Origin: Flaccisagitta enflata
Taxonomy: Eukaryota
Assembly: GCA_965153355.1 (NCBI GenBank)
Contig: OZ231126.1
Location: forward strand, 26,102,001-26,166,000
Direction of reading: 5' to 3'
DNA length: 64,000 bases
This document shows, one piece after another, positions 13,148-50,737 of this stretch. The notes under the pieces were generated by a model, which had not been told where the DNA came from, searched no databases, and saw only the letters and a program-made list of their open reading frames with translations. The translations under genes and the position numbers were made by a program. The stretch's first letter is position 1; every line of letters starts with the position of its first letter.

Positions 13148-13705
13148 TTCTAGTTGCGCGCACGCGACTCTACATCTCGCTTTGTTGGTCCGTTGGTCGA
13201 TCGGTTGGTCCCCTTTTTGGGCAGCAGCCTCGAAGGGGCCGATGACCTATGCTTTCACACAGGGGAAATTTCTCCTTCTCCTTCATCTTCTTCTCCTTCT
13301 ACATCCCCCCCCCCCGGCTTTGGGACCCAAATCCCACCCTCAAGGCCATATCCCAGCCTTTACACCCAAATTCTGGCGTAGAGGCCCAAATTTCAGCATT
13401 GAGACCCAAATTCCAGCCTTAAGGCCCCAACCCCAGCTTCAAGGCTCAAACCCCAGCTTTCTGGCCCAAATCCCACCCTTGAGCCCTAAATTTCATCCTC
13501 AAAGCTGAAACCCCGACCAAAATCACAGCCTCAAGGCGCAAATCACAGCCTTGAGGCTCAAATCCCAGTGTTGATGCTAAAATTCAGCCTAGAGCCAAAC
13601 ACTAGCATAGATCATCGACCCTTGGGGCCTGCCCTCTCACATCACACATCAACACTAAACAGGCAGCAGGAGGTACTGCTGACCATCTGTTGCCCTAAAC
13701 TATTA
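13148..13705 (+). mobile_element. HINE family A fragment followed by HINE family B with about 20-bp central tandem repeats
   Basis: TAGTTGCGCGCACGCGACT hairpin, then TTTTTGGGCAGCAGCC.. subTIR and AAATCCCAGCCTCAAGGC-type array. Confidence 0.7.
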
Positions 13706-13729
13706 CTTTTTATATATTATTTTGGTTAT

Positions 13730-15712
13730 TTTATATCATTTTACATCATTTTAAATCATTTTACATCATTTACATCATTTTACTTATTACATCATTTTAC
13801 TTCATTTTACATCATTTTACATTCCTAACATCATTTTAACATTTTATCATTTTGCATCATTTTACATCATTTACATCATTTTATGTATTTATTATTCACA
13901 TCATTTTATATCATATTCATCATTTACATCATATACGTCATTTACGTCATTTTATCATTTACCATCATTTACATCATTTCATCATTTTACATCATTTTAC
14001 ATCATTTTACATCATTTTACATCATATTACAGCATTTTACATCATTTACATCAATTTACATCATTTTACATCATTTTACATCATTTTACGTTATTTTACA
14101 TCATTTGCATCATTTAACATCATTCTACATCATTTACATCATTTACATCATTTTACTTCATTTTACATCATCTTACATCATTTATATCATTTTGCGTCAT
14201 TTTACATCATTTTACATGATTAAACATCATTTTACATCATTTTACATCATTTTACATCATTTAGATCATTTTACATCATTTAACTTCATTTATGTCATTT
14301 TATTTCATTTACATCGTTTTACATCACTTTACATCACTTTACATCATTTTACATCATTTTACATCATTTTATATCATTTTGCATCACCACACATGATTTA
14401 CATCATTTTACATTATTTCACTTCATTTTATGTCATTTTACATCATTTTACATCAAATTACATCAATTTACATCAATTTTCATCATTTTACATCATTTTA
14501 GATCATTTATATCATTTACATAATTTTACAAAATTTTACATCATTTTACATCATTTTACATCATTTTATATCACTTTACATTACCATACATGATTTACAT
14601 CATTTTACATTATTTCACTTCATTTTATGTCATTTTACATCATTTTACATCAATTTACATCATTTGCATCATTTTACATCATTTTACATCATTTATATCA
14701 TTTACATAATTTTACATAATTTTACATCATTTTACATCATTTGACATCATTTTACATCATTAACATTATTTTACATCATTTTACATCATTTTACATCATT
14801 TTTAATCATTTACATCATTCTACATAATTTTACATCATTTAACATCATTTTACATCATTTACATCATTTTACATCATTTTATATCATTTAGATCATTTTA
14901 CATCATTTCACATCATTTTACATTATTTTACATCATTTTACATTATTTATATCATTTTGCATCATTTTACTTCATTTTTTTATCACTTTACCATCATTTT
15001 ACATCATTTTACATCACTTTACATCATTTACATTATTTTACATCATTTTACATCATTTTACATCATTTTACATCATTTTATATCATTTACATCATTTTAC
15101 ATCATTTTACATCATTATACATGATTTACATCATTTTACATTATTTCACTTCATTTTATATCATTTTACATCATTTACATCATTTTACATCAATTTACAT
15201 CAATTTACATCATTTTACATCATTTACATCATTTTACATCATTTGCATCATTTTACATTATTTTACATCATTTATATCATTTATATCATTTTTCATCATT
15301 TTACATCATTTTACATCTTCTTATATCATCCTACATCATCAACATCATTTTACATCATCTTACATCATTTAACATCAATTTACATCATTTTACATCATTT
15401 TACATCATTTACATCATTTTACAGCATTTTACATCATTTTAAATCATTTACATCATTTTACATCATTTAACATCATTTTACATCATTTACATCATTTACA
15501 TCATTTACATCATTTTACATTATTTACATTATTTTACATCATTTTGCATCTCTTAACATCATTTTACATCATTTTGCACCATTTTTTATCATTTACATCA
15601 TTTTACATCATTTTACATCATTTTACATCATTATACATGATTTACATCATTTTACATTATTTACATCATTTTACATCATTTTGCACCTCTTTACATCATT
15701 TTACATCATTTT
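13730..15712. repeat. About 2-kb satellite of 9-10-bp units (TTTTACATCA)
   Basis: Seen directly; explains the His/Phe-rich ORFs. Confidence 0.95.
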
Positions 15713-16176
15713 ACTCCATTTCCACTTCCGCATCTGTTTCCATCAAGATTCTGAAAACTGCTTCCGCTTCTGCTTCCGTTTCTACTGAGAAAGTGACGCT
15801 TCCGCTTCCACATCTCTAGTTTGAAGTCATTTTAGTCAAGATAGTTTGAAGACGGTCTTTAAAGAAGGTTCTTAAGATGTATTCTTAAGCCTGTCTTGAA
15901 GAAGGTTCTTGAAAAAAACATTCAAACCATTCTTCAAGACGATTTTGAAGAAGGTTCTTGAAGCTGGGTCTTAAGACGATTTTGGGAGGGGGTTTGAAGA
16001 CGGTCTTAAGAAGCAAAAAATGGTCCATGTGAACGTCCCTCAGAAATTCGATGTAGTTTTAGAATCTCACTGATTTTTATATGATTTTATTTTTTTTAGC
16101 ACAGATATGACCCAAAACGCTCGCCGATATATATATGTTCTAGATAGTAAATGTTTTTTTTCAGTTGGTTACACTT

Positions 16177-16364
16177 AAACAAGGTCGGATATACGGCTAC
16201 CGAAGTCGCGTGCAGGGCTAGGGGCAGTGATGAAAAAGGCTTACTCAAGCATTTGAGCAGAAGCGCCCGAAAACGCCAAAAACGCCAAAAAAGCAAACAG
16301 TGACCGACCGACAGACCGACCAACCAACACAGCGGGTTATAGAGTCGCGTGCACGCGACTAAAA
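16177..16364 (-). mobile_element. HINE family A
   Basis: AAACAAGG.CGGATA..CGGC ... (GACC)n ... AGTCGCGTGCACGCGACTAAAA. Confidence 0.8.
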
Positions 16365-16470
16365 GTATAAAAAATGTTTTAGGATGTGAATGATTGACAA
16401 TATATTTTTGAAACTGTTTTTCCTAGTGTGACAAGTGAAACAATATCCCTCACTTAAGCCTAATACTCAC

Positions 16471-18854: not shown

Positions 18855-19974
18855 CTTCTCCCCATTTTCTTTCTCAGTATGGTGATGTAATGGAATGCTC
18901 ATTAATCAAAAGGCGATTCGAGCGTTGTAACGCCGATGTCAAATAACTGGGTGAAGAGAGAGGCACTAGAGTCAGAGAGATCACTAAACCTAAATGAGCC
19001 TAAACTTTCTGTAGCTCTCCTTAAGCATCAGAGCCAGAGAGAGGGAGAGAAAAGGAGAGATAGGGACAAGGACACTCAGAGAGACAGAAAAAACAGAGAC
19101 AGAGAGAAACAGAGACAGCGAGACAGAGACACTGAGAGAGTAGAGATCCCTTCTATTCCTCTATCCTCATGTTTTTTTTTCTCAATCTTATGCCTAATCC
19201 TCTTTTCTTTTCTCTTGCGTTCTTTCTAACCCTATCTCTTGGCGTGTTCTTCTTCCCTTTCCTTGGCCTATTCCTATCACCAGGATTTCCAAGAAAAAAT
19301 TTCTTTTGCTTATTTTCTTCTATTCATCTGTCCTTTTTATCCAACAGCCCCACCCCATTATCACCGATCCAATGATAAAAATGTTTTTCTAATTTCATAG
19401 TTTACGATGGCAATGACGGAAATCCACCATATGAGAAAAAAATGTATATCCTATAAAACTTACTATTTTGAGTAATTCCTTCAGATAAGAAATTTGCTTA
19501 CATTGGAAGTGTGTCTGCAACTTTTTTCCCAATTCATTCCTTTTTTCAATAAGTTACAAAAAAGATTTTGTTTTTTTTTTTCAAATTGCATTTCATCTCA
19601 CGTTACGCAGCTTGACCATCCTTGTAAAACGGTTCAAAGTACGCCCTTTATGGTTTCCAACCTTGCTCAACCCCCCTACCACACCTTGACTTATTTGGAA
19701 TGTTCTTACATCAATGCCCCTTTTTCCCTCCTTCCTGTCCTATCGCGTTTCAGAGACCCACTCTCCTAAACGTATCATCTTTTTTTATATTTCCGATATT
19801 TTCCTTTCTCACTCCTGAGAGACTTGGCATTTTTCAGAATATAAAACTTCGATAAACCAATGAAAAAAAAAAGTGGAAATTCTTCCTCGTGGGAAAACAT
19901 TGGAAAAGTTAAGCGCCAGAATTTTTATTAGAGTAAACCGCGGGAAGAGCCCTTGGTGAAATTGCGCCTCTATA

Positions 19975-20735
19975 TATGGGGATGTCCACATTGGATCAAT
20001 TTGACACTTCTCTTCATTGGAATATACACATTGGATCAAACTGACACCTTTCTTAATGGGAATGTCCACATTGAATCAAATTGACACTTCCTTTCATGGG
20101 GATTTACACGGAAAATCAAACTGACACTTCTCCTCATAGGGATGTCCACATTGGATTAAATTGACACTTCTCTTCATGGGAGTGTCGACATTGGATCAAA
20201 TCAACACTTCTCTTCATGGGGATGTCCGCATTGGATCAAACTGACACATCTCCTAATAGGGATATACACATTGGATCCAATTGACACTTCTCTTCATGGG
20301 AATGTACACATTGGATCAAACTGACACCTTTCTGAATGGCAATGTCCACATAGGATCAAATTGACACTTCCTTACCTGGGGATTTACATGTGGAATCAAA
20401 TAAACACTTCTCTTCATGGGGATGTCCGCTAGCATAAGAAAAAATAATGTAATGTCATAGAAAACTTCTCTATCAGAGGGTTATAGCCCTAAATCATATT
20501 TACAGATGGTCCCTGAAAGAAATTTAGCCCTGGAACCCCTATAAATTGACGCCGCCACCCGCCCCCTTTCCAATAATAAAACATGGGAAATTGACACTTC
20601 TTTTCATGGGAATGTCCACAATGGATCAAATTGACACTTCTCTTCATGGGAGTGTCCACATCGGATTGATTTACACTTCTCTTCATAGGAATGTTCAGAT
20701 TGGACCAAATTGACACGTCTCTTCATGGGGATATA
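19975..20735. repeat. 40-bp minisatellite, interrupted at about 20430-20585
   Basis: Unit GATGTCCACATTGGATCAAATTGACACTTCTCTTCATGGG with exact 40-bp period. Confidence 0.95.
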
Positions 20736-20849
20736 CATATTAACGCCTCTCTGTATGAATATGTATACATCGGAAAAAAATGATACCTTTCTTCATGGTT
20801 ATGTCCATGTTGTCATTCTTTTTGTTGTTTTTCTTTTGTTTTTGTCGTC

Positions 20850-21444
20850 ATTTTTGTTGTTGTTGTTGTTATTGTTGTTGTTGTTGTTATTGTTGTTGTT
20901 ATTGTTGTTATTGTTATTGTTGTTGTTATTATTGTTATTTATTATTGTTGTTATTGTTTTCATAATTGTTATTTGTTGTTGCTGTTATTATTGTTGTTGT
21001 TGTTATTTTGTTGTTGATGATTTGTTGTTGTTATTGTTGTTATTTGTTGTTGTTGTTGTTATTTATTATTTATTTGTTTATTTGTTTATTGTTATTGTTG
21101 TTATTTGTTATTGTTGTTGTTGTTGTTGTTGTCGTCTTCATAAGTTGTTGTTGTTGTGTTGTTGTTTTGTTGTTGTTGTTGTTATTTGTTATTCTATTTG
21201 TTGTTGTTGTTGTTTGTTGTTGTTGTTGTTGTGGTTGTTATTTATTATCGTTATCGTTTGTCATTGTCGTTGTCGTTGTTGTCGTCGTCGTCGTCGTCGT
21301 CATAATTATTATTGTTGTTGTTGTTGTTGTTGTTGTGGTTTGTTGTTTGTTGTTGTTAATGGTGTTGTATTTATTGTTGTTGTTATTGTTGTTGTTGTTG
21401 TTGTTGTTGTCCAGAGTTATTCTTGTTATTGTTGTTGTCTGTGT

Positions 21445-21479
<35 letters not shown>

Positions 21480-21544
21480 ATTATTTGTTGTTATTTGTTG
21501 TTGTTATTTGTTGTTGTTGTTGTTGTTGTTTATTTATTGTGGTT

Positions 21545-21601
<57 letters not shown>

Positions 21602-22771: not shown

Positions 22772-23606
22772 AAAACAAGGCCAGATACACGGCTACCCCA
22801 GTCGCGTGTGGGTGGGCAGAAGCAGTGCTGGAGAAGGTCACTATTGCATTTGGGCAGGAGCAGTAAGCTCAAAAAGCTCAAAAACGCCAAAAAAGTAACT
22901 AGTCATCCAAGGATCGCACATGGTCAGCGGTATCCGATGCCCTGCTTAGATTGATTAGTTGCAGAAGTGGATTGAGAGCAGGGCAGCGGCCCCAAAGGGC
23001 CGATGTCCTGTAGGACACAGGGGTGAATTTCCAGACGTCCTGAGAAGGCACATTTGAGGCCTTTGGGGCTACTTTCCTTGTTATTTAATGAAAACATTGA
23101 ATTTTTTTCCCATTTCATTGTCAATTTTCCATGTTATTCAATCTGAATTTTGCATTTATTTACAAATTTGTCAATTTTCCACGTTAGTCAATAGGAATTT
23201 CCCATATTTCTAACCTCTAGTAAATTTTCTATGTTATTCAATGGGAATTCCATATTTTTTTTCATTTCTTTATCAATTTTTCATGTTATTCAATGGGAAT
23301 TTTGCATTTCTTCAATTTTCCTTGTTATTCAATGGGAACATGAGGCTCAGAAGCTTTGGTGAGGGGGGGGGGACATACGGATGGACGGATGGACGGACGG
23401 ACGTCTGGAAATTTACCCCTGTCCTACAGGACATCGGCCCTTTGGGGCCGCTGCCCAAAAAGGGGACCAACCGACCGACCGACCGACCGACCGACCGACC
23501 GACCGACTGACCGACCGACCGACCGACCGACCGACCAACCGACCGACCGACTGACCAACGGACCGACATAGTGGGGTGTAGGGTCGCGTAGCACGCGACT
23601 AAAAAA
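22772..23606 (-). mobile_element. HINE family A interrupted by HINE family B (22897-23460)
   Basis: The A halves rejoin as AAAAAAGT.AAAGGGGACC, as in the intact copy at 2581. Confidence 0.85.
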
Positions 23607-24423
23607 TGAATTTCAACATGAAAAATTTACAGGGCAATGTCTTGAACGGATAAGCCAATGGTCTAGAGAGATCTGAGTTTATTTTGGCAAAGGTCATTAA
23701 ACTAAGTGCGTTTGTGATTTTGCCAAATACTTTCAACTTAAGGCCAAGCAAATGTAAGGAACAACGAACTTTAACCGGGATGTTTTTTTTTTCATCAAAT
23801 TCATTACATAATCATAACAAATAGTGGTCAAGGTTAACGATCTTTTAAACGCATATCAGTAGAAGGCGTTGTAATAAATATAGGTGATTCTTGAATAACC
23901 ATAACGATGAAATAAAAAGGCAAACAGTGCTCGTAACATATCAAATCTATGAAAAAGGGCAGGGCATATGAAATGCTAACATCCCTAGTCGTATGCGGTA
24001 GTTGACTGGTGACAAAAAGATGAATTGGCAAATGATCCAACACTTAGTGTTTAATGCACATACAATAAAACCAGCAAGAAGAAAAAAATGGATTTTTTCC
24101 TATTTTGGTTTTCAGATCTATGTGCACCCGATGGCCGGTAATGGAGTCTTACTGAATGAAGAACTATACATACGGAAGACAAATTTCAACTTTCTTTCTC
24201 TCCATGATCTGAAATGAACAACAAACGTTTTTATACGAGTTTTTTAACGCGATGTATGACTCAATTTCAGACAAAATCACATGTAGGCAATCATTCAAAA
24301 TGCATACTGGTAGAAAAAAATGACCGTGTATTAGGTTGTAAATGCGGACAATGACAATCAAAATGATAACAAAATGACTTCACACCCCCATTTCTAATCC
24401 CTGTGGTCTGTTTTCACCGGCTT

Positions 24424-24996
24424 CTACGATTTTCTAAACTGTGTCAACATCTCAGGATTCCGTTGTCTACATTGGACAATCGAACACATGCATCCATCAA
24501 CGACGATTTTGTACGTTGCCTCCATTTTCGTGTGTCTTTTGTCTCGCCTCTTAAGACTCGCCCACCGATCGGGCACGCAGCAAGGGCAGTAATGGTCGCC
24601 CGTCCACTGCACGCGCGAGAGAGCGTAGGCTCGGGCCAGAGTGTTGCTTTCGCACGAACCTTTCGGGTTGCATCGTTTTATATTTTCGCGGTTGCCTTGA
24701 ATGTTGATGACGTAGTCTACTGGCGCGCATCCTTGTTGCTGCAAAGCGTTTGTACTTCTACGACGGCGGCGTGAGGCGGCGGAAGACGAGGAGGAGGAGG
24801 AAGACGAGGAGAAGGAGGAATAGGAGGAAGAGAAAGAGCGTTGATGCTGGGATAATCGATTCCACGCGGTGTTGCGCGAATGTTCGTCGACGAAATACTT
24901 GAGAGGAAGTTGAGAATGCTCAACGAGGACGAGGAAGGGCCGAAATGTCATGGAGGCCGTGGGATTGAGCGTGGATGCGGAGGTGGAGGATGGCAC
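24424..24996 (-). CDS. Exon 3 of divergent TGF-beta-like precursor (end of prodomain, furin site, mature cystine-knot domain)
   Basis: 190-aa open frame; FRPFLVL resembles the end-of-prodomain motif; RRRRR|S site; mature region with C...CNPKGSC...CPCCVP...IVVDGCMC (compare BMP2 CCVP...MVVEGCGC); exon start inferred at AAG|GTG. Confidence 0.85.
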   Translation of the reverse strand: MPSSTSASTLNPTASMTFRPFLVLVEHSQLPLKYFVDEHSRNTAWNRLSQHQRSFSSSYSSFSSSSSSSSSSAASRRRRRSTNALQQQGCAPVDYVINIQGNRENIKRCNPKGSCESNTLARAYALSRVQWTGDHYCPCCVPDRWASLKRRDKRHTKMEATYKIVVDGCMCSIVQCRQRNPEMLTQFRKS

Positions 24997-25291
24997 CTTG
25001 ATTCAATAATAAAGAACGCTACAAACTGACATAAAGCCGAGCTAAAAGACAGAGAGACAGACACGAAGAGAGAGCTGACACTTCATAGAGATGCTTTGTT
25101 GCACTTCATGAAAAACCGAGAGCTTCACTTTTGGGGTATTGTTAGTGTTGTCGTTAGTCATTTTGTGTATACATATGGATACCAAGAAAAATTTGAAATT
25201 GACCTTTCTCATGTCCAAAAATATATTTTGTTTAAATCAAAAGCAAGAATCGCTCCATTTCATCTATTTATCAACTGATTCTACTGTGTAC

Positions 25292-25618
25292 CTGATTATC
25301 ATCAAAGTTTTCCATAGAATCGTTGTTTACGCCTCTGAATCTCAATCGAAGTAAATCTTCCTGAAAAGGGGAGGTCAGAGGATGCAACGGAAGAACAAAG
25401 AATTGTCTCTGATCAGAGACATTGTAGAAATCCTCGTTGACGTAAAAGCTCAGATTATGCAAATTAGATTGCTGCTGCACATTCCGTAACGAAGGAAGAT
25501 CATCTTTTGGCTGTCGAAGGTTTGGAAGTCCAAAGCCAAAGAAAAGTGACGACAGATTTGAGGCTTTGGAGAGCTTCTTGGTGAAATTGAATCGATGGGA
25601 AAGGGATGAACCTTCAGT
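25292..25618 (-). CDS. Exon 2 of divergent TGF-beta-like precursor (prodomain)
   Basis: Acceptor (CT)n-CATTTCTTGCAG|ACT, open 109 codons (TEGSSL...FDDNQ), donor CAG|GTACAC; phase 0 at both ends, matching the neighbouring exons. Confidence 0.75.
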
Positions 25619-25625
25619 CTGCAAG

Positions 25626-25670
<45 letters not shown>

Positions 25671-25773
25671 AAACATTTCTTCTTGACCATGTATCCGTTA
25701 AAAAATATTTCTTTCTACGCACTATTTCATTTGGAAAAAAAAGAAACTGCTGCGTAAAAATGAACACTAGATT

Positions 25774-26150
25774 GATGGATGGATGTTTTGATGGATGGAT
25801 GGATGGATGGAAAATGAACAATGGATTGATGGATGGATGTTTGGATGGATGGATGGCCGATGGATGGATATATGGATGGATGGATGGATGGATAGATGGA
25901 TGGATGGATGGATGGATGGATATTAAATGGATGGATGGATGGATGGATGGATGGATGGATGGATGGATGGATGGATGGATGGATGGATGGATGGAAATGT
26001 GGGTGTATGGATGGATTGATGGATGGATAGATGGATGGATGAGCGGGTGAATGGATGGATAAATAGATAGTTGGATGGATGGATGGATGGATTGACAGAT
26101 GGATTGATGGACGGATGAGTGGGTAAATACTAAATAGATAATTGAATGGG
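25774..26150. repeat. (GGAT)n microsatellite in intron 1 of the TGF-beta-like gene
   Basis: Seen directly. Confidence 0.95.
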
Positions 26151-26323
26151 AGGATGGAGGGACCGATAGATTGATTCATGATTGTACAAGGGGTTTATGG
26201 ATGGACGACACAACGAATGGACACATGGATTGATGGATGGGCAAAAAGATTGATATACGGTTAAATAGAAAGAGTAAAACAAACAATAGATACATGGACA
26301 GAAAAACGTTTAGAAAAACCTAC

Positions 26324-26629
26324 CTGTACTCTTCCAAGCGGCACGACTTTGACAACGACTCTTTTGTGCCTTAGTCTCAGCACTTCCTCGTCATTGGTTG
26401 AATCCATTTCCGCATCCAGAATGTCGACGATCTTCTCAACTTCCTTGAAAAATGCGCGATGATCGGGTCCCATCGACGGAGTCACGGTCGACGAACGTTT
26501 GGGGAAATCGGATGCGAGGCGCTTCGTGGGGATACTGGAGCCGGTCGTCGGAATAACAACCGTCCACGAAAAAATTGTGAAGACGACGGAGACTAAAATG
26601 ACCGCGGCAATCGTCGCAGAAACGTTCAT
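26324..26629 (-). CDS. Exon 1 of divergent TGF-beta-like precursor (signal peptide and N-terminal prodomain)
   Basis: ATG at 26629; hydrophobic N-terminus MNVSATIAAVILVSVVFTIFSWTVVIP; 102 codons ending RVQ at donor CAG|GTAGGT (phase 0); contains RHKR. Confidence 0.8.
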
Positions 26630-26754
26630 GATGGAACTGTGTGGTTTATGAAGTTAAACGAATTGACGGCGCAATCGAAGTCTCGATGTGTGATATCGTT
26701 TGAGGAACGTAAATTCAAACTCGGGATCATGTTCCATGAAAGAAGATGCGCGGC

Positions 26755-32978: not shown

Positions 32979-33194
32979 AACAAGGGGATACACGGCTATC
33001 CAAGTCGCGTGCGGGTGGGCAGGAGCCATATTTGAGATCACAAGATCATTTGGGCAGGAGCAGTAAGGTCCAAAAATAAAAATTATAAAAAAAGTAAAGT
33101 GTGACCGACCGACCGACCGACTGTCCGACCGACCAACCGACCGACCGACGGACGGACAAAGCGGGGTGTAGAGTCGCGAGCACGCGACTAAAAA
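32979..33194 (-). mobile_element. HINE family A
   Basis: Complete structure with (GACC)n and terminal hairpin AGTCGCGAGCACGCGACT. Confidence 0.85.
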
Positions 33195-33380
33195 GTAAGG
33201 GCGTACGCCGCGCCGACGTGCTAGGGAAAAGTGGGTGAGAGATAATCATTAGTAAATCAACAACCACTCATCCAGGAATCACATAAGTTCCACGGTATCT
33301 GTTGCCCTGTTTTGAATGATTAGCTTAAAAAGCAACGTGGGGTTATAACATCGTCGCTGATGGGTGGGCATGGCAGGGGC

Positions 33381-34678
33381 CACAATGCGGCCAAAACCTA
33401 ACACCCGGAGATAAATGCCCTATCTCCACTCCGACCACCCTAATCACCCCTGCCAGCCTACACAATGCGGCCAAAACCTAACACCCGCAGATAAATGCCC
33501 TATCTCCACTCCGACCACCCTAATCACCCCTGCCAGCCTACACAATGCGGCCAAAACCTAACACCCGGAGATAAATGCCCTATCTCCACTCCGACCACCC
33601 TAATCAACCCTGCCAGCCTACACAGTGCGGCCAAAACCTAACACCCGGAGATAAATGCCCTATCTCCACTCCGACCACCCTAATCAACCCTGCCAGCCTA
33701 CACAATGCGGCCAAAACCTAACACCCGGAGATAAATGCCCTATCTCCACTCCGACCACCCTAATCACCCCTGCCAGCCTACACAATGCGGTCAAAACCTA
33801 ACAACTGGAGATAAATGCCCTATCTCCACTCCGACCACCCTAATCACCCCTGCCAGCCTACACAATGCGGCCAAAACCTAACACCCGGAGATAAATGCCC
33901 TAACATCTGTACACTTATTATTGTCAAAAGATCAAACAGCTGTCAAATCTAAGCAGACATATTTAACCATATGCCAATTTTTCCATTAGTTAGGGCTTGA
34001 AAAAATTTTCATTTTGCTCATGAATTTCACCTCAATTGCATTGTACAAAATCAAATAAGATCAAAAACAGTAAAAACATTCCCAAAGCAAATTATGGCAA
34101 AATTACCAGAAAAACCTTATGAACTTCAGTTGTTCACCAAATCTACATAAAGATAGATAATCAGATGCAAATTTCACGACTAAACAGCTTTTGAAAAGTT
34201 CTTTAATTTGCCCACGGATTTCAATTGATTTTGTAAAAGTTAATGCTTCAAAAATTCGAACCAAAGTTGTGGAAAAATTTGTACCTTGGTGTTAAATGTT
34301 AGTTGTCAAGAGGTCAAAAAGTTTAAAACAAGCATCCCAATTGGAACAAAATACAAAAAATAATGTGGAATATATTGGGAAATACTCATAAAATATATAA
34401 CTTCAGGGAATTGAATCGTTCCTCACCAGTAGTAGCGAGGTATGTATAGTTGTAGCACTACCTTGACAATAATTAGTGTACAGGTATTATCTCCACTCCG
34501 ACTACCCTAATCACCCCTGCCAGCCTACACAATGCGGCCAAAACCTAACACCCGGAGATAAATGCCCTATTTCCACTCCGACCACCCTAATCACCCCTGC
34601 CAGCCTACACAATGCGGCCAAAACCTAACACCCGCAGATAAATGCCCTATTTCCACTCCAACCACCCTAATCACCCCT
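33381..34678. repeat. 80-bp satellite (about 9 units) split by a MITE
   Basis: Units start at 33381, 33461 ... 33861; array resumes at 34490. Confidence 0.95.
33903..34487. mobile_element. TA-flanked MITE inserted in the 80-bp satellite
   Basis: TIR ..CTGTACACT.ATTATTGTCAA; TA duplication shown by uninterrupted units (GCCC-TA-TCTCC). Confidence 0.85.
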
Positions 34679-34828: not shown

Positions 34829-35192
34829 CACCATCCGTTCCAACTACCGTCAGGTGGTTTTTACTTTTTAGTAGTGCTCTGAACTATCCTCTCGTTTTAA
34901 CTCAGGAAGCACTTCCTGTATTGGGATCCAGCGTCAAAGAAATCTTTCTTGTGGCGCCTTAAAAGAAAAAAATTCTATTTTGCCCTTAGGTTTTACAGGG
35001 TTGTTAGATAACCTTTTTAGATAGCATATTTGAGTTCCTGATAGAATTTCCTCTCATTTGATAAGTCGCACTATACATCTTGAACTACCTTGTAAAATCT
35101 GAGCGCAAAATAGGATGAAAAGTTACACTATACGCTTTATAGGCAAATCCAGCACAGTATCAATATGCAATATGGCATTATGGTCACCATAA

Positions 35193-35833
35193 CGTCCGTC
35201 CGTACGTCCCCCCCCCGAAGCTTCTCAGGGCTCAAATCCATCCTCTCAGGCCTCAAATCCAGCCTCTCAGGCCTCAAATCCAGCCTCTCAGGCCTCAAAT
35301 CTGGCCTCTCAGGCCTCAAATCTGGCCTCTCAGGCCTCAAATTCAGCCTTTCAGGCCTCAAATCAAGCCTCTCGGGCCTCAAATCCAGCCTCTCAGGCCT
35401 CAAATCTGGCCTCTCAGGCCTCAAATCCAGCCTCTCAGGCCTCCAATCCAGCCTCTCAGGCCTCAAATCCAGCCTCTCAGGTCTCAAATCCCACCTCTCA
35501 GGCCTCAAATCCAGCCTCTTGGCCTCAAATCCAACCTCTTGGGCCTTAAACCCAGCCTCTTGGGCCTTAAACCCAGCCTCTCAGGCCTCAAATTCCCATT
35601 GAATAACATGGCAAATTGACAAAAAATTGATAAAGATGCAAAATTCCCAATGAATATCACGGAAAATTACCCTAAATATGCCCTCTCAGGACGAATGGAA
35701 ATTCACCCCTGTGTCCTACAGGACATTGGCCCTTTGGGGCCGCTGCCCTGCTCTCACTCCACTTCTTCAGCTAATCACTTCAAGCAGGGCATCGGGTACC
35801 GCTGACCATGTGCAATCCTTGGATGACTTGTTT
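35193..35833 (+). mobile_element. HINE family B (5'-truncated) with homogeneous 21-bp array GGCCTCAAATCCAGCCTCTCA
   Basis: Array at 35222-35595; 3' subTIR and end ..GGATGACTTGTTT. Confidence 0.85.
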
Positions 35834-39104: not shown

Positions 39105-39418
39105 AAACAAGGCCAACACCTATAATTCGCGTGCGAGACTTAAACTATTACTTTATAACATAACCACATCACTTCATTGAATTTTATTGACATAAGATAA
39201 TTCAAAATGACCTAAAATAACTTAAGTTGACTTAAACTGACTTAAAATGACCTAAAATGACTTAAAATGATCTAATCTGACTTAAAATGACCTAATTGAC
39301 TTAAAATGAGTTAGTAGGAATAAAGCGAATAAAAAAAGTAAAGTGTGACGGACCAACCGACCAACCGACCGACGGACAAAGCGGGGTGTAGAGTGGCGTA
39401 GCACGCGACTAAAAAAAA
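39105..39418 (-). mobile_element. HINE family A with internal 10-bp repeats (CTTAAAATGA)
   Basis: AAACAAGGCC start, (GACC)n, GCACGCGACTAAAA end. Confidence 0.7.
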
Positions 39419-47538: not shown

Positions 47539-47684
47539 CTCTATTGCTCTATCCTCCGTTTGCCTTTATTTTCCCCTTCTTTACTTTTTCCCTTGACTAA
47601 CCTGATTGTTTCTCTCAGCTTTTCAATTTCCACTTTTCTTCGTCCTTCTTAGCAAAGAAGGTCTTTGGGGAGGAAAAGCGGAAC

Positions 47685-48800
47685 ATGTGTGGATGAAGAA
47701 AAAGAAAATGAAGTAAAGATGTAAAGAAATAGGTGAAGAAAATGTGGATGAAGAAAGAGAAAATGAAGAAAAGATGTAGAGAAATAGGTGAAGAACATGT
47801 GGATGAAGAAATAGAAAATGAAGAAAAGATGTTGAAAAATAAGTGAAGAATATGTGGATGAAGAAAGAGAAAATGAAAAAAGGATGTTGAAAAATAGGTG
47901 AAGAATATGTAGATGAAGAAAGAGAAAATGAAGAAAAAATGTAGAGAAAGAGGTGAAGAATATGTGGATGAAGAAATAGAGAATGAAGAAAAGATGTAGA
48001 GAAATAGGTGAAGAATATGTGGATGAAGAAATAGAAAATGAAGAAAAGATGTTGAGAAATAGGTGACGAATATGTGGATGAAGAAAGAAAAAATGAAGCA
48101 AAGATGTAAAGAAAAAGGTGAATAACGTGTGGATGAAGGAAAAGAAAATGAAGACAATATGTAAAGAAAATATGTAAAGAAATAGGTGAAGAACATGTGG
48201 ATTACGCCGATTGCATCCCAGACTTTGCTGAATCGCTCTTATGTGCCCCCTTCATCATGTGACACTCACGATTTTATTTCAAACAAGCCAATGCGCAGCT
48301 TTCTAGCTTGATGGGAACCTTTTTTAGGGTCAATTTGAAACTAACAAAGAAAATAAACAGATTTTCCTAAGGGGATTCTTACGAGGATTTTTTCCCATGT
48401 ATTTCAATGTAAACTTTAAACGGGCCCTAAAAAAGGTTCCCATCAAGCTAGAAAGCTGAGCATTGGCTTGTTTGAAATAATACGCGAGTGTCGCGTTATA
48501 AAGGGGGCACATAAGAGCATAATGTGGATAAAAAAAGAGAAAATGAAGAAAAGATGTAGAGAAATAAGCGAATAACTTGTGGATGAAGAAAAAGAAAAGG
48601 AAGAGAGGAGGTCCAGAATAAGGTGAAGTACATGTGAATGAAGAATAAGAAAATGAAGAGAGGAGGTAGAGGAATAGGTGAATAACATTTGGATGAAGAA
48701 ATAGAAAATGAAGAAAGAAGGTAAAGAAAATTTTGAACATGCGGATGAAAAAATGGAGAGAGGAAGTAGAAAAGTACGTAATGAGTATGTGGATGAAGAA
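47685..48800. repeat. 55-bp purine-rich minisatellite
   Basis: GAATATGTGGATGAAG recurs at 47958, 48013 and 48068. Confidence 0.9.
48235..48518. mobile_element. Palindromic MITE within the 55-bp array
   Basis: GCTCTTATGTGCCCCCTT / AAGGGGGCACATAAGAGC; arms about 100 bp. Confidence 0.8.
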
Positions 48801-48966
48801 CAAGTGACGCGGGGTCACAATATCGTTGCGGACGGGTGGGCAGGGGCATCCAACCCCCATCTACACTTAAACCCAAACCCTCACTCAAAAACACAAAGAG
48901 TATCTAAAATGTGTGTGAAAGCATAGGTCATCGATAAGGTGGGCCGCTGACCAAAAGGTGGAATGA

Positions 48967-49470
48967 GAGGCGGGTAAGTCGGTAGTCAGAGGCGGGTAAG
49001 TTGGTAGTCAGAGGCAAGTAAGTCAGTAGTCAGAGGCGGGTGAGTTGGTAGTCAGAGGCGGGTAAGTCGGTAGTCAGAGGCGGGTTAGTTAGTAGCCCAA
49101 GGCGGGCAAGTCGGTAGTCCGAGGTGGTTAGTCGGTAATCAGAGGTGGGTAAGTCTGTAGTCAGAGGCGGGTAAGTCTGTAGTCAGAGGCGGGTGAGTCG
49201 GTAGTCAGAGGCGGGATAGTCGGTAGTCAGAGGCGGGTAAGTCGGTAGTCAGAGGCGGGTGAGTCGGTAGTCAGAGGCGGGCAAGTTGGTAGTCAGAGGC
49301 GGGTTAGTCGGTAGTCAGAGGCGGGATAGTCGGTAGTCAGAGGCGGGTAAGTCGGTAGTCAGAGGCGGGTAAGTCGGTAGTCAGGGGGGGGTGAGTCGGT
49401 AGTCAGAGGCGGGTGAGTTGGTAGTCAGAGGCGGGCAACTCGGTAGTCAGAGGCGGGTGAGTCGGCAGTC
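48967..49470. repeat. 22-bp minisatellite (AGTCAGAGGCGGGTAAGTCGGT)
   Basis: About 23 tandem units. Confidence 0.95.
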
Positions 49471-50540
49471 ACTCCGGGTTACCAAGAAACACTTTTAATC
49501 ATAGTCCTCGCAGCCTTTTTTCTCGTGAGCAAATTTTCCTCTCCTTCTTGCTGGGATTGGGTTTGAACTTTGCCCTCGCTTTCTTTTTCTTCTTTTTTTC
49601 CTTTCCTTTCTTTGAATCTTTTCCCTATTTCTTCACCATCACTTTGACTTTTTTCCTCCTCTCTTTTAAAAATTTCCATCTTTTACCCCTTTTGAAACTT
49701 TTTTCAACTTCGATTTCTCCGATTTTCTCGTCCATCTTTTTAACAGTTGTGACTTTCCCAATTTTATCAGAACAGTGATACTGATGGTGCTGTTAGCCTG
49801 TTACAACCAGGTCCCTACTTTGAATAGGTCTTTGCTCTGCCCCTGCCCAAAGTGCCCATTTGAAATCCCAAAATGCAATGATACCCTCCATCCTTGAGTC
49901 ACTTGAGCTTCACTGAGCGCATACCACTCGGCTAAGAAAAAAAGACGCACCTGTTTATAAATTGATATAACAGGTATATGAATTATTTATAACTTTTTTC
50001 AAAGAAAAGATTTTCAAAAATTTTTTCAATCTAGACCAATCCCACCTCTATATCTCGAACGGTTTAGAAGCTAGAGCTTGGCAAAGAGAAGCACTAATTT
50101 GCTAAAATGCATTTTTACATAGCGATTGCAAAACTGAAATGGGCAAAATTTTCACTCAAACTAATACCATTTCTAAACGTAAACAGATAGCAATACCAGA
50201 TTGGCGTCAAATGAAAGTACAGTGGAGCACCGCAAAAGCACACCCACTAATATGGCATGCCCGCCTATAAAGCATCCAACCTACAATACCATAAGAGATT
50301 TTGTAATTATTTGTATATTGGCTATAAGGTAGCTTCACTATAAGGCATAATTTTACACAGTCTCTTGGAATGCGCTCTCGTAAAGCTCAACTGTACTGTA
50401 CTTTCAAAGGGCTTTCAGATGACTTAAGATTTTAATAGGTTTTTTTCATTCATAAGTAAAATTAGCCATCTAAAAGTGCGTCTTATTTTTTAGTCGTATG
50501 GTACATGTACCAAGGGACAGCTGTTTATTGCCAACATAGA

Positions 50541-50737
50541 AAACAAGGCCGGATACACGGCTACCCCATTCGCGTGCAAGTGGGCAGGGGCCATAATTGA
50601 GGTCAGTGGAACATTTGGGCAGGAGCAATAGGGCCAAAACCCCTATCAACGCCAAAAAAGTAAAATGTGACCAACGGACGGACCGACGGACCGACCGTCA
50701 ATGCGGGGTGTAGAGTCGCGTAGCACGCGACTAAAAA
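50541..50737 (-). mobile_element. HINE family A
   Basis: Complete structure with AGTCGCGTAGCACGCGACT hairpin; further partial copies at about 45510-45736, 51724-51832, 55562-55720 and 57777-58000. Confidence 0.85.

Follow-up and report, generated by a model that had tools for sequence, protein, structure and literature searches.

The minus strand of the 64-kb window analysed here (64,000 nucleotides (nt) of contig OZ231126.1 from Flaccisagitta enflata, to which all positions below refer) carries at 26629-24424 a gene whose three exons, as read from the sequence, join into 401 codons with no internal stop. Its product is interpreted, with middling confidence, as a secreted orphan precursor which would be cut by a proprotein convertase and would carry a cystine-knot ligand at its C-terminus. 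In the collections searched, the family has neither a description nor a name, and no Pfam family or solved relative was found there. In an earlier note the gene had been called TGF-beta superfamily-like; membership of TGF-beta is not demonstrated, and a cystine-knot fold appears plausible.

According to the mechanism proposed here, the hydrophobic N-terminus would take the precursor into the secretory pathway, the prodomain of about 260 amino acids (aa), cysteine-free and presumably N-glycosylated, would chaperone the folding of the C-terminal domain, and a furin-type convertase would cut after the conserved multibasic site (RRRRR here), setting free a basic disulfide-rich ligand of approximately 110 aa and 12.6 kDa, probably as a dimer. 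The knot pairs would be 301-351, 320-380 and 326-382 in the 401-aa numbering, and an extra pair, 348-387, would clamp the C-terminal tail to the base of finger 2. A ninth cysteine (350), found only in this organism's copy, would lie at the TGF-beta interchain position; because it is present in this copy only, a covalent dimer could form here and not in the relatives. We infer the secretion, cleavage and glycosylation of the precursor, whereas the knot topology, the dimerisation, the descent from TGF-beta and any receptor are hypothetical.

Gene structure, relatives and constraint

The search with the 110-aa C-terminal domain as a phmmer query against a library of 1,835,955,588 representative proteins returned four matches at E ≤ 0.001, namely P0004, P0005, P0006 and P0007. 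P0004 corresponds to the exon-3 frame itself, predicted on a contig from a metagenome, and P0005 (255 aa, E 4.7e-18) and P0006 (214 aa, E 1.6e-11) are relatives. The remaining match, P0007, a protein of 571 aa made of repeats of about 75 aa with one cysteine each, was judged spurious, its E value of 8e-07 arising from five repeated matches to residues 10-43 of the mature domain, and it was excluded from every alignment. The family comprises three clusters with six, two and two members, all of them unnamed proteins on marine metagenome contigs of 880-2,449 nt.

Exon 3 was aligned with four relatives (P0005, P0013, P0006 and P0014) in the five-sequence alignment A1, in which the relatives show 34-38% identity to exon 3 and 33-39% over the 110-aa domain (43, 43, 37 and 36 of 110 residues). 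Eight cysteines are invariant in all five sequences, as are the motifs PF.VLV, S.LP..Y..D...RN..W.R and KIVVD.C.C.I..C, and the conserved cysteine pattern is C-x18-22-C-x5-7-C-x21-C-x2-C-x28-C-x-C-x4-C. The position of the multibasic site is shared by all three lineages (RRRRR, RHRR and RSRR), whose C-termini agree to within one residue. In a BLASTP comparison the product of exon 2 aligned with the N-terminal part of P0005 (E 1e-08, 16/59 identical), and both P0005 and P0006 cross the intron-2 position in a single open frame, so the products of exons 2 and 3 can be taken as parts of one protein.

No clusters beyond the known three were found with the A1 profile among 4,590 candidates, and exon 3 as the query of a word-index search in longer proteins gave no further relative among 1,158 candidates. 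None of the 141 pattern matches in the JGI metagenome contigs or of the 43 in the IMG/VR viral contigs was confirmed as a relative. For exon 1, the only relative among seven candidates was P0015, a variant from the same organism, and other lineages gave none. The family is thus, as far as these sequences go, a lineage-restricted orphan family known so far from this organism and two related marine-metagenome lineages. This bears out the description of the gene as a lineage-specific orphan, with three unnamed marine-metagenome clusters as the only ones found and no known family detected. A keyword search of the literature produced no description of such a family, which is weak evidence of its absence from print.

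Variation within the species was compared between exons and introns. Of the 39 intron-2 codons through which variant P0008 reads, six differ from the window, in which two of the six are stop codons; in the 190 codons of exon 3 this variant has no substitution outside the Ser/Arg tract. Six exon-3 variants taken together show two substitutions in total, plus changes in the length of the serine tract. In variant P0015, 2 of the 102 exon-1 codons are changed, both in the hydrophobic leader, versus 4 of 42 read-through codons of intron 1. The RNA-library contigs contain five exonic differences, four of which are synonymous (three of four in exon 2 alone). This points to within-species variation being much lower in exons than in introns, in agreement with constraint on a real gene. 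Judged from its sequence, the gene is real and under constraint.

The earlier note had proposed that two phase-0 GT-AG introns (705 and 295 nt) separate three minus-strand segments coding together for about 401 aa, and all its coordinates were reproduced. The start codon ATG (26629-26627; all features of the gene are on the minus strand) stands in the context ATCATGA, with A at -3, and opens exon 1, whose coding part of 102 codons (26629-26324) is an open ATG frame up to the donor CAG/GTAGGT (the slash marks the splice boundary). Intron 1 (26323-25619, 705 nt) ends with the acceptor TTTCTTGCAG/A and is followed by exon 2 (25618-25292, 109 codons), which codes for the middle of the prodomain with its five N-x-S/T sites and reaches the donor CAG/GTACAC. 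Intron 2 (25291-24997, 295 nt) ends with the acceptor TTGAATCAAG/G, and exon 3 (24996-24427, 190 codons) contains the end of the prodomain, the cleavage site and the cysteine-rich domain before the stop codon TAG at 24426-24424. The donor of exon 1 and the acceptor of intron 1 form a strong pair; the acceptor of intron 2 is weak. Exon 1 would belong to the gene on the strength of its own signals and of the variation pattern, because it has no relative in other lineages. We are highly confident that the gene is functional and that its structure is, in essence, the three-exon one.

Four short contigs, one or two from each of three metatranscriptome runs in a single study, correspond to 25414-25614 in exon 2, 24520-24682 and 24542-24771 in exon 3, and 24200-24384 past the stop codon, and none of the four falls in intron 2. 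They give weak support for transcription, and DNA carry-over may contribute to it. The RNA reads and contigs were compared with the stretch 24200-25628, which leaves the intron-1 microsatellite, exon 1 and the exon 1/2 junction outside.

A TATAAA box at 26760-26755, approximately 125 nt upstream of the ATG, is a possible core promoter. The region 24200-24423 is probably, at least in part, the 3′ untranslated region, since the contig over 24200-24384 extends beyond 24200, and the nearest AATAAA to the 3′ side of the gene on the minus strand is located at 23683-23678. Two ATGs are present at 26730-26737 on the minus strand between the TATA box and the main ATG, one of which starts a short upstream open reading frame, while the frame of the other stops at a TGA overlapping the main ATG. 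Intron 1 contains a (GA)19 run at 25630-25667, directly upstream of the pyrimidine tract of the acceptor, and, at 25770-26117, an array of (GATG)n/(CCAT)n in which GATG, read as CCAT on the coding strand, is repeated about 88 times. An in-frame stop at 25003-25005 (Y-Y-stop-I-K), six bases before the AG of the intron-2 acceptor, is replaced by Trp in three metagenome variants, because of which bacterial-style gene callers ran the exon-3 frame into intron 2.

The predicted precursor

Residues 1-30 (26629-26540) form, judging by hydrophobicity, a putative signal peptide or possibly a signal anchor, with a hydrophobic N-terminus at residues 4-27 and Kyte-Doolittle means over 15 residues of 2.0-2.7 across residues 1-27. 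Three KR sites of exon 1 (RHKR at 26371-26360, T-K-R and P-K-R) are situated between this leader and an amphipathic stretch, FFKEVEKIVDILD, and could be extra convertase sites freeing small N-terminal peptides.

The prodomain of about 260 aa contains no cysteine and has five N-x-S/T sites. Close to its end there is a hydrophobic strand, PFLVLV (24939-24922), which lies within FRPFLVLV, is represented by PFVVLV in the relatives and coincides with invariant columns of A1; the conserved S.LP..Y..D...RN..W.R is found downstream of it. A serine-rich tract at 24834-24772, for which an imperfect trinucleotide repeat of the (GAG/GAA)n type codes, is length-polymorphic and is absent from the relatives; all six metagenome variants have one Ser fewer than the window, and one exon-3 variant has RRRR where the window has RRRRR.

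The tract is directly followed by RRRRR (24771-24757), a putative furin or proprotein-convertase site whose place is taken by RHRR or RSRR in the relatives, and by the predicted mature domain (24756-24427), which has 110 aa, a mass of 12.6 kDa, an isoelectric point of 9.3 and nine cysteines. All nine cysteines of the 401-aa precursor are located after the putative cleavage site. Six of the eight conserved cysteines are compatible with the growth-factor knot pattern I...II-x(n)-III...IV...V-x-VI, with a likely helix, NTLARAYALSRVQW, between the putative knot cysteines III and IV. Most of what had been noticed earlier about the protein holds, including the signal-like N-terminus (hydrophobic residues 4-27), the RPFLV-like prodomain motif (present as FRPFLVLV), the RRRRR site with a 110-aa C-terminal part, both at the coordinates given then, and the lack of W-x-x-W together with 18 aa between the first two cysteines. 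The end described as VVxGCxC was right as to the motif and wrong as to the end, because the protein continues for 19 residues past C-x-C.

Family searches, alternative explanations and genomic surroundings

A number of results weigh against a cystine-knot ligand of the TGF-beta kind, as do the departures from TGF-beta ligands described in the last section. No Pfam row for TGF_beta (PF00019) was obtained at E ≤ 10 with exon 3, the mature 110 aa, P0005, P0013, P0006 or P0014, and none for TGFb_propeptide (PF00688) with exons 1, 2 and 3 or the relatives, the latter being a weak test because TGF-beta prodomains are poorly conserved, as stated in PMC7017013. Exon 3 compared by phmmer with the PDB sequences gave only a serine-tract artefact (E 1.1), and the family profile had no match at E ≤ 10 among 177,635 distinct PDB sequences. 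No TGF-beta ligand appeared at E ≤ 0.001 among the 1.84e9 representatives, which must contain many.

The language-model atlas placed the mature domain nearest to clusters of PDGF/VEGF (0.80, 0.79 and 0.77) and DAN/Cys_knot (0.75), a level which shuffled sequences reach one third of the time according to the calibration of the tool, and there was no TGF-beta cluster among the matches listed for the domain. With the whole relative P0005 the atlas gave no usable match. The AlphaFold2 predictions of the mature domain with alignment A2 (mean predicted local distance difference test (pLDDT) score 33.7) and of P0005 with alignment A4 (mean pLDDT 31.8) had no residue at or above 50, and neither is a usable model.

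Two further points count on the same side. The hydrophobic stretch at the N-terminus is long (about 24 residues) with no basic residue ahead of it, because of which a membrane anchor is possible. As for RNA, no read or contig spans a splice junction, the exon 1/2 junction not being directly covered by the comparison with 24200-25628, and the poly-A run of the organism gave no reads on 24200-25628, about 6% of the run having been read, hence it is no expression test.

The assignment to the TGF-beta superfamily made in the earlier note therefore has no statistical support, the Pfam, PDB and 1.84e9-protein searches all being negative, and the profile check suggested there (TGF_beta, TGFb_propeptide, Cys_knot and DAN) was run and gave no row at E ≤ 10. 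A homodimer prediction with two copies of the mature domain scored 0.30 versus a mark of 0.32, was made without controls and speaks neither for nor against a dimer.

The gene could also found an unrecognised, extremely derived branch of the TGF-beta/growth-factor cystine-knot superfamily, although this is doubtful. Such a branch would be characterised by an enlarged C-x5-7-C ring, short fingers, a tail-clamp disulfide, a distribution narrowed to a marine plankton lineage and an interchain cysteine regained in one species, by which a non-covalent dimer would have become covalent there, and it might use a non-canonical receptor or serve as a ligand trap, because the receptor-contact motifs of finger 1 are lost.

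If the cystine-knot interpretation is true, a ligand family has been wholly missed by standard profile annotation, Pfam, PDB sequence searches and AlphaFold2 with a shallow alignment all having failed on it. It would also show how much a precursor of the TGF-beta type can change in the size of its ring, the length of its fingers and its extension at the C-terminus with the processing logic kept, and close lineages that have or lack the interchain cysteine would offer a natural experiment on covalent and non-covalent dimers. The gene is in addition a conserved, expressed-looking orphan of an abundant marine plankton organism.

Among the alternatives, the product may be a secreted, convertase-processed cysteine-rich protein with a non-knot fold, such as a hormone, a pheromone, a defence peptide or a matrix component, whose likeness to TGF-beta is coincidental. 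We consider this unlikely, though deserving serious attention, as no sequence search ties the protein to a known family, AlphaFold2 recognises no fold, the motif likenesses are short and cysteine-anchored, and three KR dibasic sites are found in exon 1, as in neuropeptide precursors. Against it stand the conserved cysteines, which can be fitted exactly to the six-cysteine knot pattern, including the diagnostic C-x-C, and the place of the domain as the very last part of the precursor, preceded by a long prodomain free of cysteine and by a multibasic site, which is the layout of cystine-knot ligand precursors. If the fold is indeed unrelated, the gene only adds to the secreted cysteine-rich proteins specific to one lineage, and its interest is local.

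It is less probable still that the ligand is a cystine-knot growth factor of another branch (PDGF/VEGF-like, of the NGF/Spaetzle/PTTH type or of the C-terminal cystine-knot/DAN type) which has acquired a TGF-beta-like prodomain layout independently. The C-x-G-x-C ring occurs in PDGF and glycoprotein hormones as well, while the NGF, Spaetzle, PTTH and noggin types have larger rings, which the C-x5-7-C ring seen here resembles. The C-x-C-x4-C ending recalls the C-terminal cystine-knot signature, which includes C-x-C-x(2,4)-C, and the nearest language-model clusters are those of PDGF/VEGF and DAN/Cys_knot, although with scores at chance level. No PDGF, NGF, Cys_knot, DAN, Spaetzle, noggin or glycoprotein hormone row was obtained from Pfam at E ≤ 10 with the exon products, the mature domain or the four relatives, and there is no credible match to a solved structure. 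The loop between cysteines III and IV has 5-13 residues in PDGF, NGF, Spaetzle and PTTH, whereas the loop of about 24 residues with a likely helix found here suits TGF-beta or GDNF better, and to our knowledge PDGF/VEGF, DAN and C-terminal cystine-knot proteins have no furin-cleaved prodomain of 260 aa.

A partly wrong gene model (a foreign exon 1 with the true N-terminus elsewhere) or an unexpressed or decaying copy would agree with the lack of junction-spanning RNA, the zero reads from the poly-A run, the lack of exon-1 relatives in other lineages, the weak intron-2 acceptor and the isolation of the gene in a stretch rich in repeats, where no second coding frame is recognisable, but is very improbable given that the three-exon frame is intact with a conserved stop position, the exons vary far less than the introns with mostly synonymous changes, exonic contigs occur in RNA libraries, and exon 1 brings the needed hydrophobic leader, a strong donor/acceptor pair and an upstream TATA box.

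The gene is present as a single copy within the window and is surrounded by microsatellites, minisatellites and a dispersed short element, with no recognisable neighbour gene. The window contains 360 frames of at least 60 aa, 187 of which remained after complexity filtering; the Pfam search with 178 of these 187 and two extra frames gave sub-threshold rows only (E 0.001-0.0086). Neither an Rfam match nor a tRNA was found in the window. Most of the long open frames arise from the minisatellites and from the (CT)n and (CA)n runs, and none has a Pfam domain. Near-identical DNA is present in marine metagenomes of several studies, and the source is therefore an abundant marine planktonic eukaryote.

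In the dispersed short element, a (GACC)n-like run precedes a core of about 40 nt that is conserved and ends with ...GCACGCGACTAAAA; the element is probably a SINE- or MITE-like repeat (short interspersed nuclear element or miniature inverted-repeat transposable element). There are about ten copies on the listed strand, for instance at 2609-2672, 16302-16365, 23541-23604, 33131-33194, 39351-39414 and 50673-50736, as well as related inverted copies, and downstream of the gene a copy is found some 800 nt from the stop codon. Minisatellites occupy 13700-15800 (period of about 10 nt), 19930-20470 (about 40 nt), 20790-21600 (about 3-9 nt), 33300-34020 (about 80 nt), 35155-35595 (about 21 nt), 47630-48800 (about 55 nt) and 48900-49540 (about 22 nt), and besides these arrays there are many (CT)n and (CA)n runs.

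Comparison with TGF-beta and other cystine-knot ligands

In PMC4079206, the cystine knot is defined as a disulfide I-IV threading a ring closed by II-V and III-VI, the conserved glycine of the ring is mentioned, PDGF/VEGF and DAN/C-terminal cystine-knot domains are placed in the same growth-factor cystine-knot superfamily, and growth-factor cystine knots are said not to be found outside animals. PMC7017013 describes the six-, seven- or nine-cysteine pattern of TGF-beta ligands, the role of the prodomain and the furin spacer. Most of the TGF-beta features used for the comparison below serve as leads and not as tests. TGF-beta ligands are dimers with a cystine-knot fold of two fingers and a heel helix, and they signal through type I and type II serine/threonine kinase receptors and Smads.

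The precursor resembles TGF-beta precursors of the activin and BMP type in having a signal-like leader, a prodomain of about 260 aa and a basic cysteine-rich C-terminal domain of about 110 aa, as well as a multibasic R-x-x-R site about ten residues ahead of the first cysteine and a hydrophobic prodomain strand (here PF[LV]VLV) before the cleavage site. The distance of this strand from the site is different, about 10-15 residues in TGF-beta versus about 55 here. Within the ligand, the six-cysteine pattern C...C-x(n)-C...C...C-x-C with C-V-P after cysteine IV, the hydrophobic strand preceding C-x-C (here KIVVD) and the long III-IV loop with a helix-like sequence are all shared with TGF-beta ligands.

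The differences concern the ring, finger 1, the CC pair and the C-terminus. The knot ring of TGF-beta ligands is formed by C-x-G-x-C and C-x-C and is eight-membered with a conserved glycine, whereas the corresponding sequence is C-NPKGS-C here and C-NPKAS-C or C-NNPEAST-C in the relatives, that is, with 5-7 residues between the cysteines. TGF-beta ligands have W-x-x-W in finger 1, and their cysteines I and II are separated by about 28 residues (28 in BMP2). In contrast, this separation is 18 residues here and 21-22 in the relatives; finger 1 is ten residues short, W-x-x-W is absent and no Trp at all is present between these two cysteines.

The CC pair of TGF-beta ligands consists of the interchain cysteine followed by a knot cysteine, with GDF9, BMP15 and lefty as exceptions. 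A pair with the first cysteine at the interchain position occurs in this organism only, the sequence being CPCC in this organism and six variants but CPYC or CPFC in the four relatives, which thus retain the knot cysteine and lack the interchain one. Of the CCVP motif, which the earlier note had considered typical, C-V-P is retained, but CC is not a feature of the family, the relatives having CPYCVP or CPFCIP. A TGF-beta ligand ends one residue past C-x-C, whereas a tail of 19 residues is found here and one of 19-20 in the relatives, with an invariant extra cysteine four residues past C-x-C in all five aligned sequences.

The signature of PDGF is P-x-C-V-x3-R-C-x-G-C-C and that of the C-terminal cystine knot is CC-x13-C-x2-[GN]-x12-C-x-C. 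Neither motif is present here, and there is no profile match, although the ending of the C-terminal cystine knot resembles C-x-C-x4-C and the PDGF/VEGF (PF00341) and DAN/C-terminal cystine-knot (PF03045 and PF00007) families are the nearest language-model clusters, at the chance level of 0.75-0.80.

The GDNF family consists of small basic cystine-knot ligands released behind R-x-x-R, with a finger 1 shorter than in BMPs and a helix between cysteines III and IV; their prodomains are short and the C-x-G-x-C-type spacing is kept. The GSCES sequence, through which GDNF had been brought in by the earlier note, is not conserved, being ASCAK and STCAE in the relatives, and gives no sequence match. 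The short prodomain and the C-x-G-x-C-type spacing are likewise unlike those of the gene described here, to which no GDNF-family sequence match was found, whereas the shortened finger 1, the III-IV helix and the small basic ligand behind R-x-x-R are alike. Among the known systems compared, the TGF-beta ligands, of which the gene would be a very derived offshoot, are tentatively regarded as its single most likely origin.

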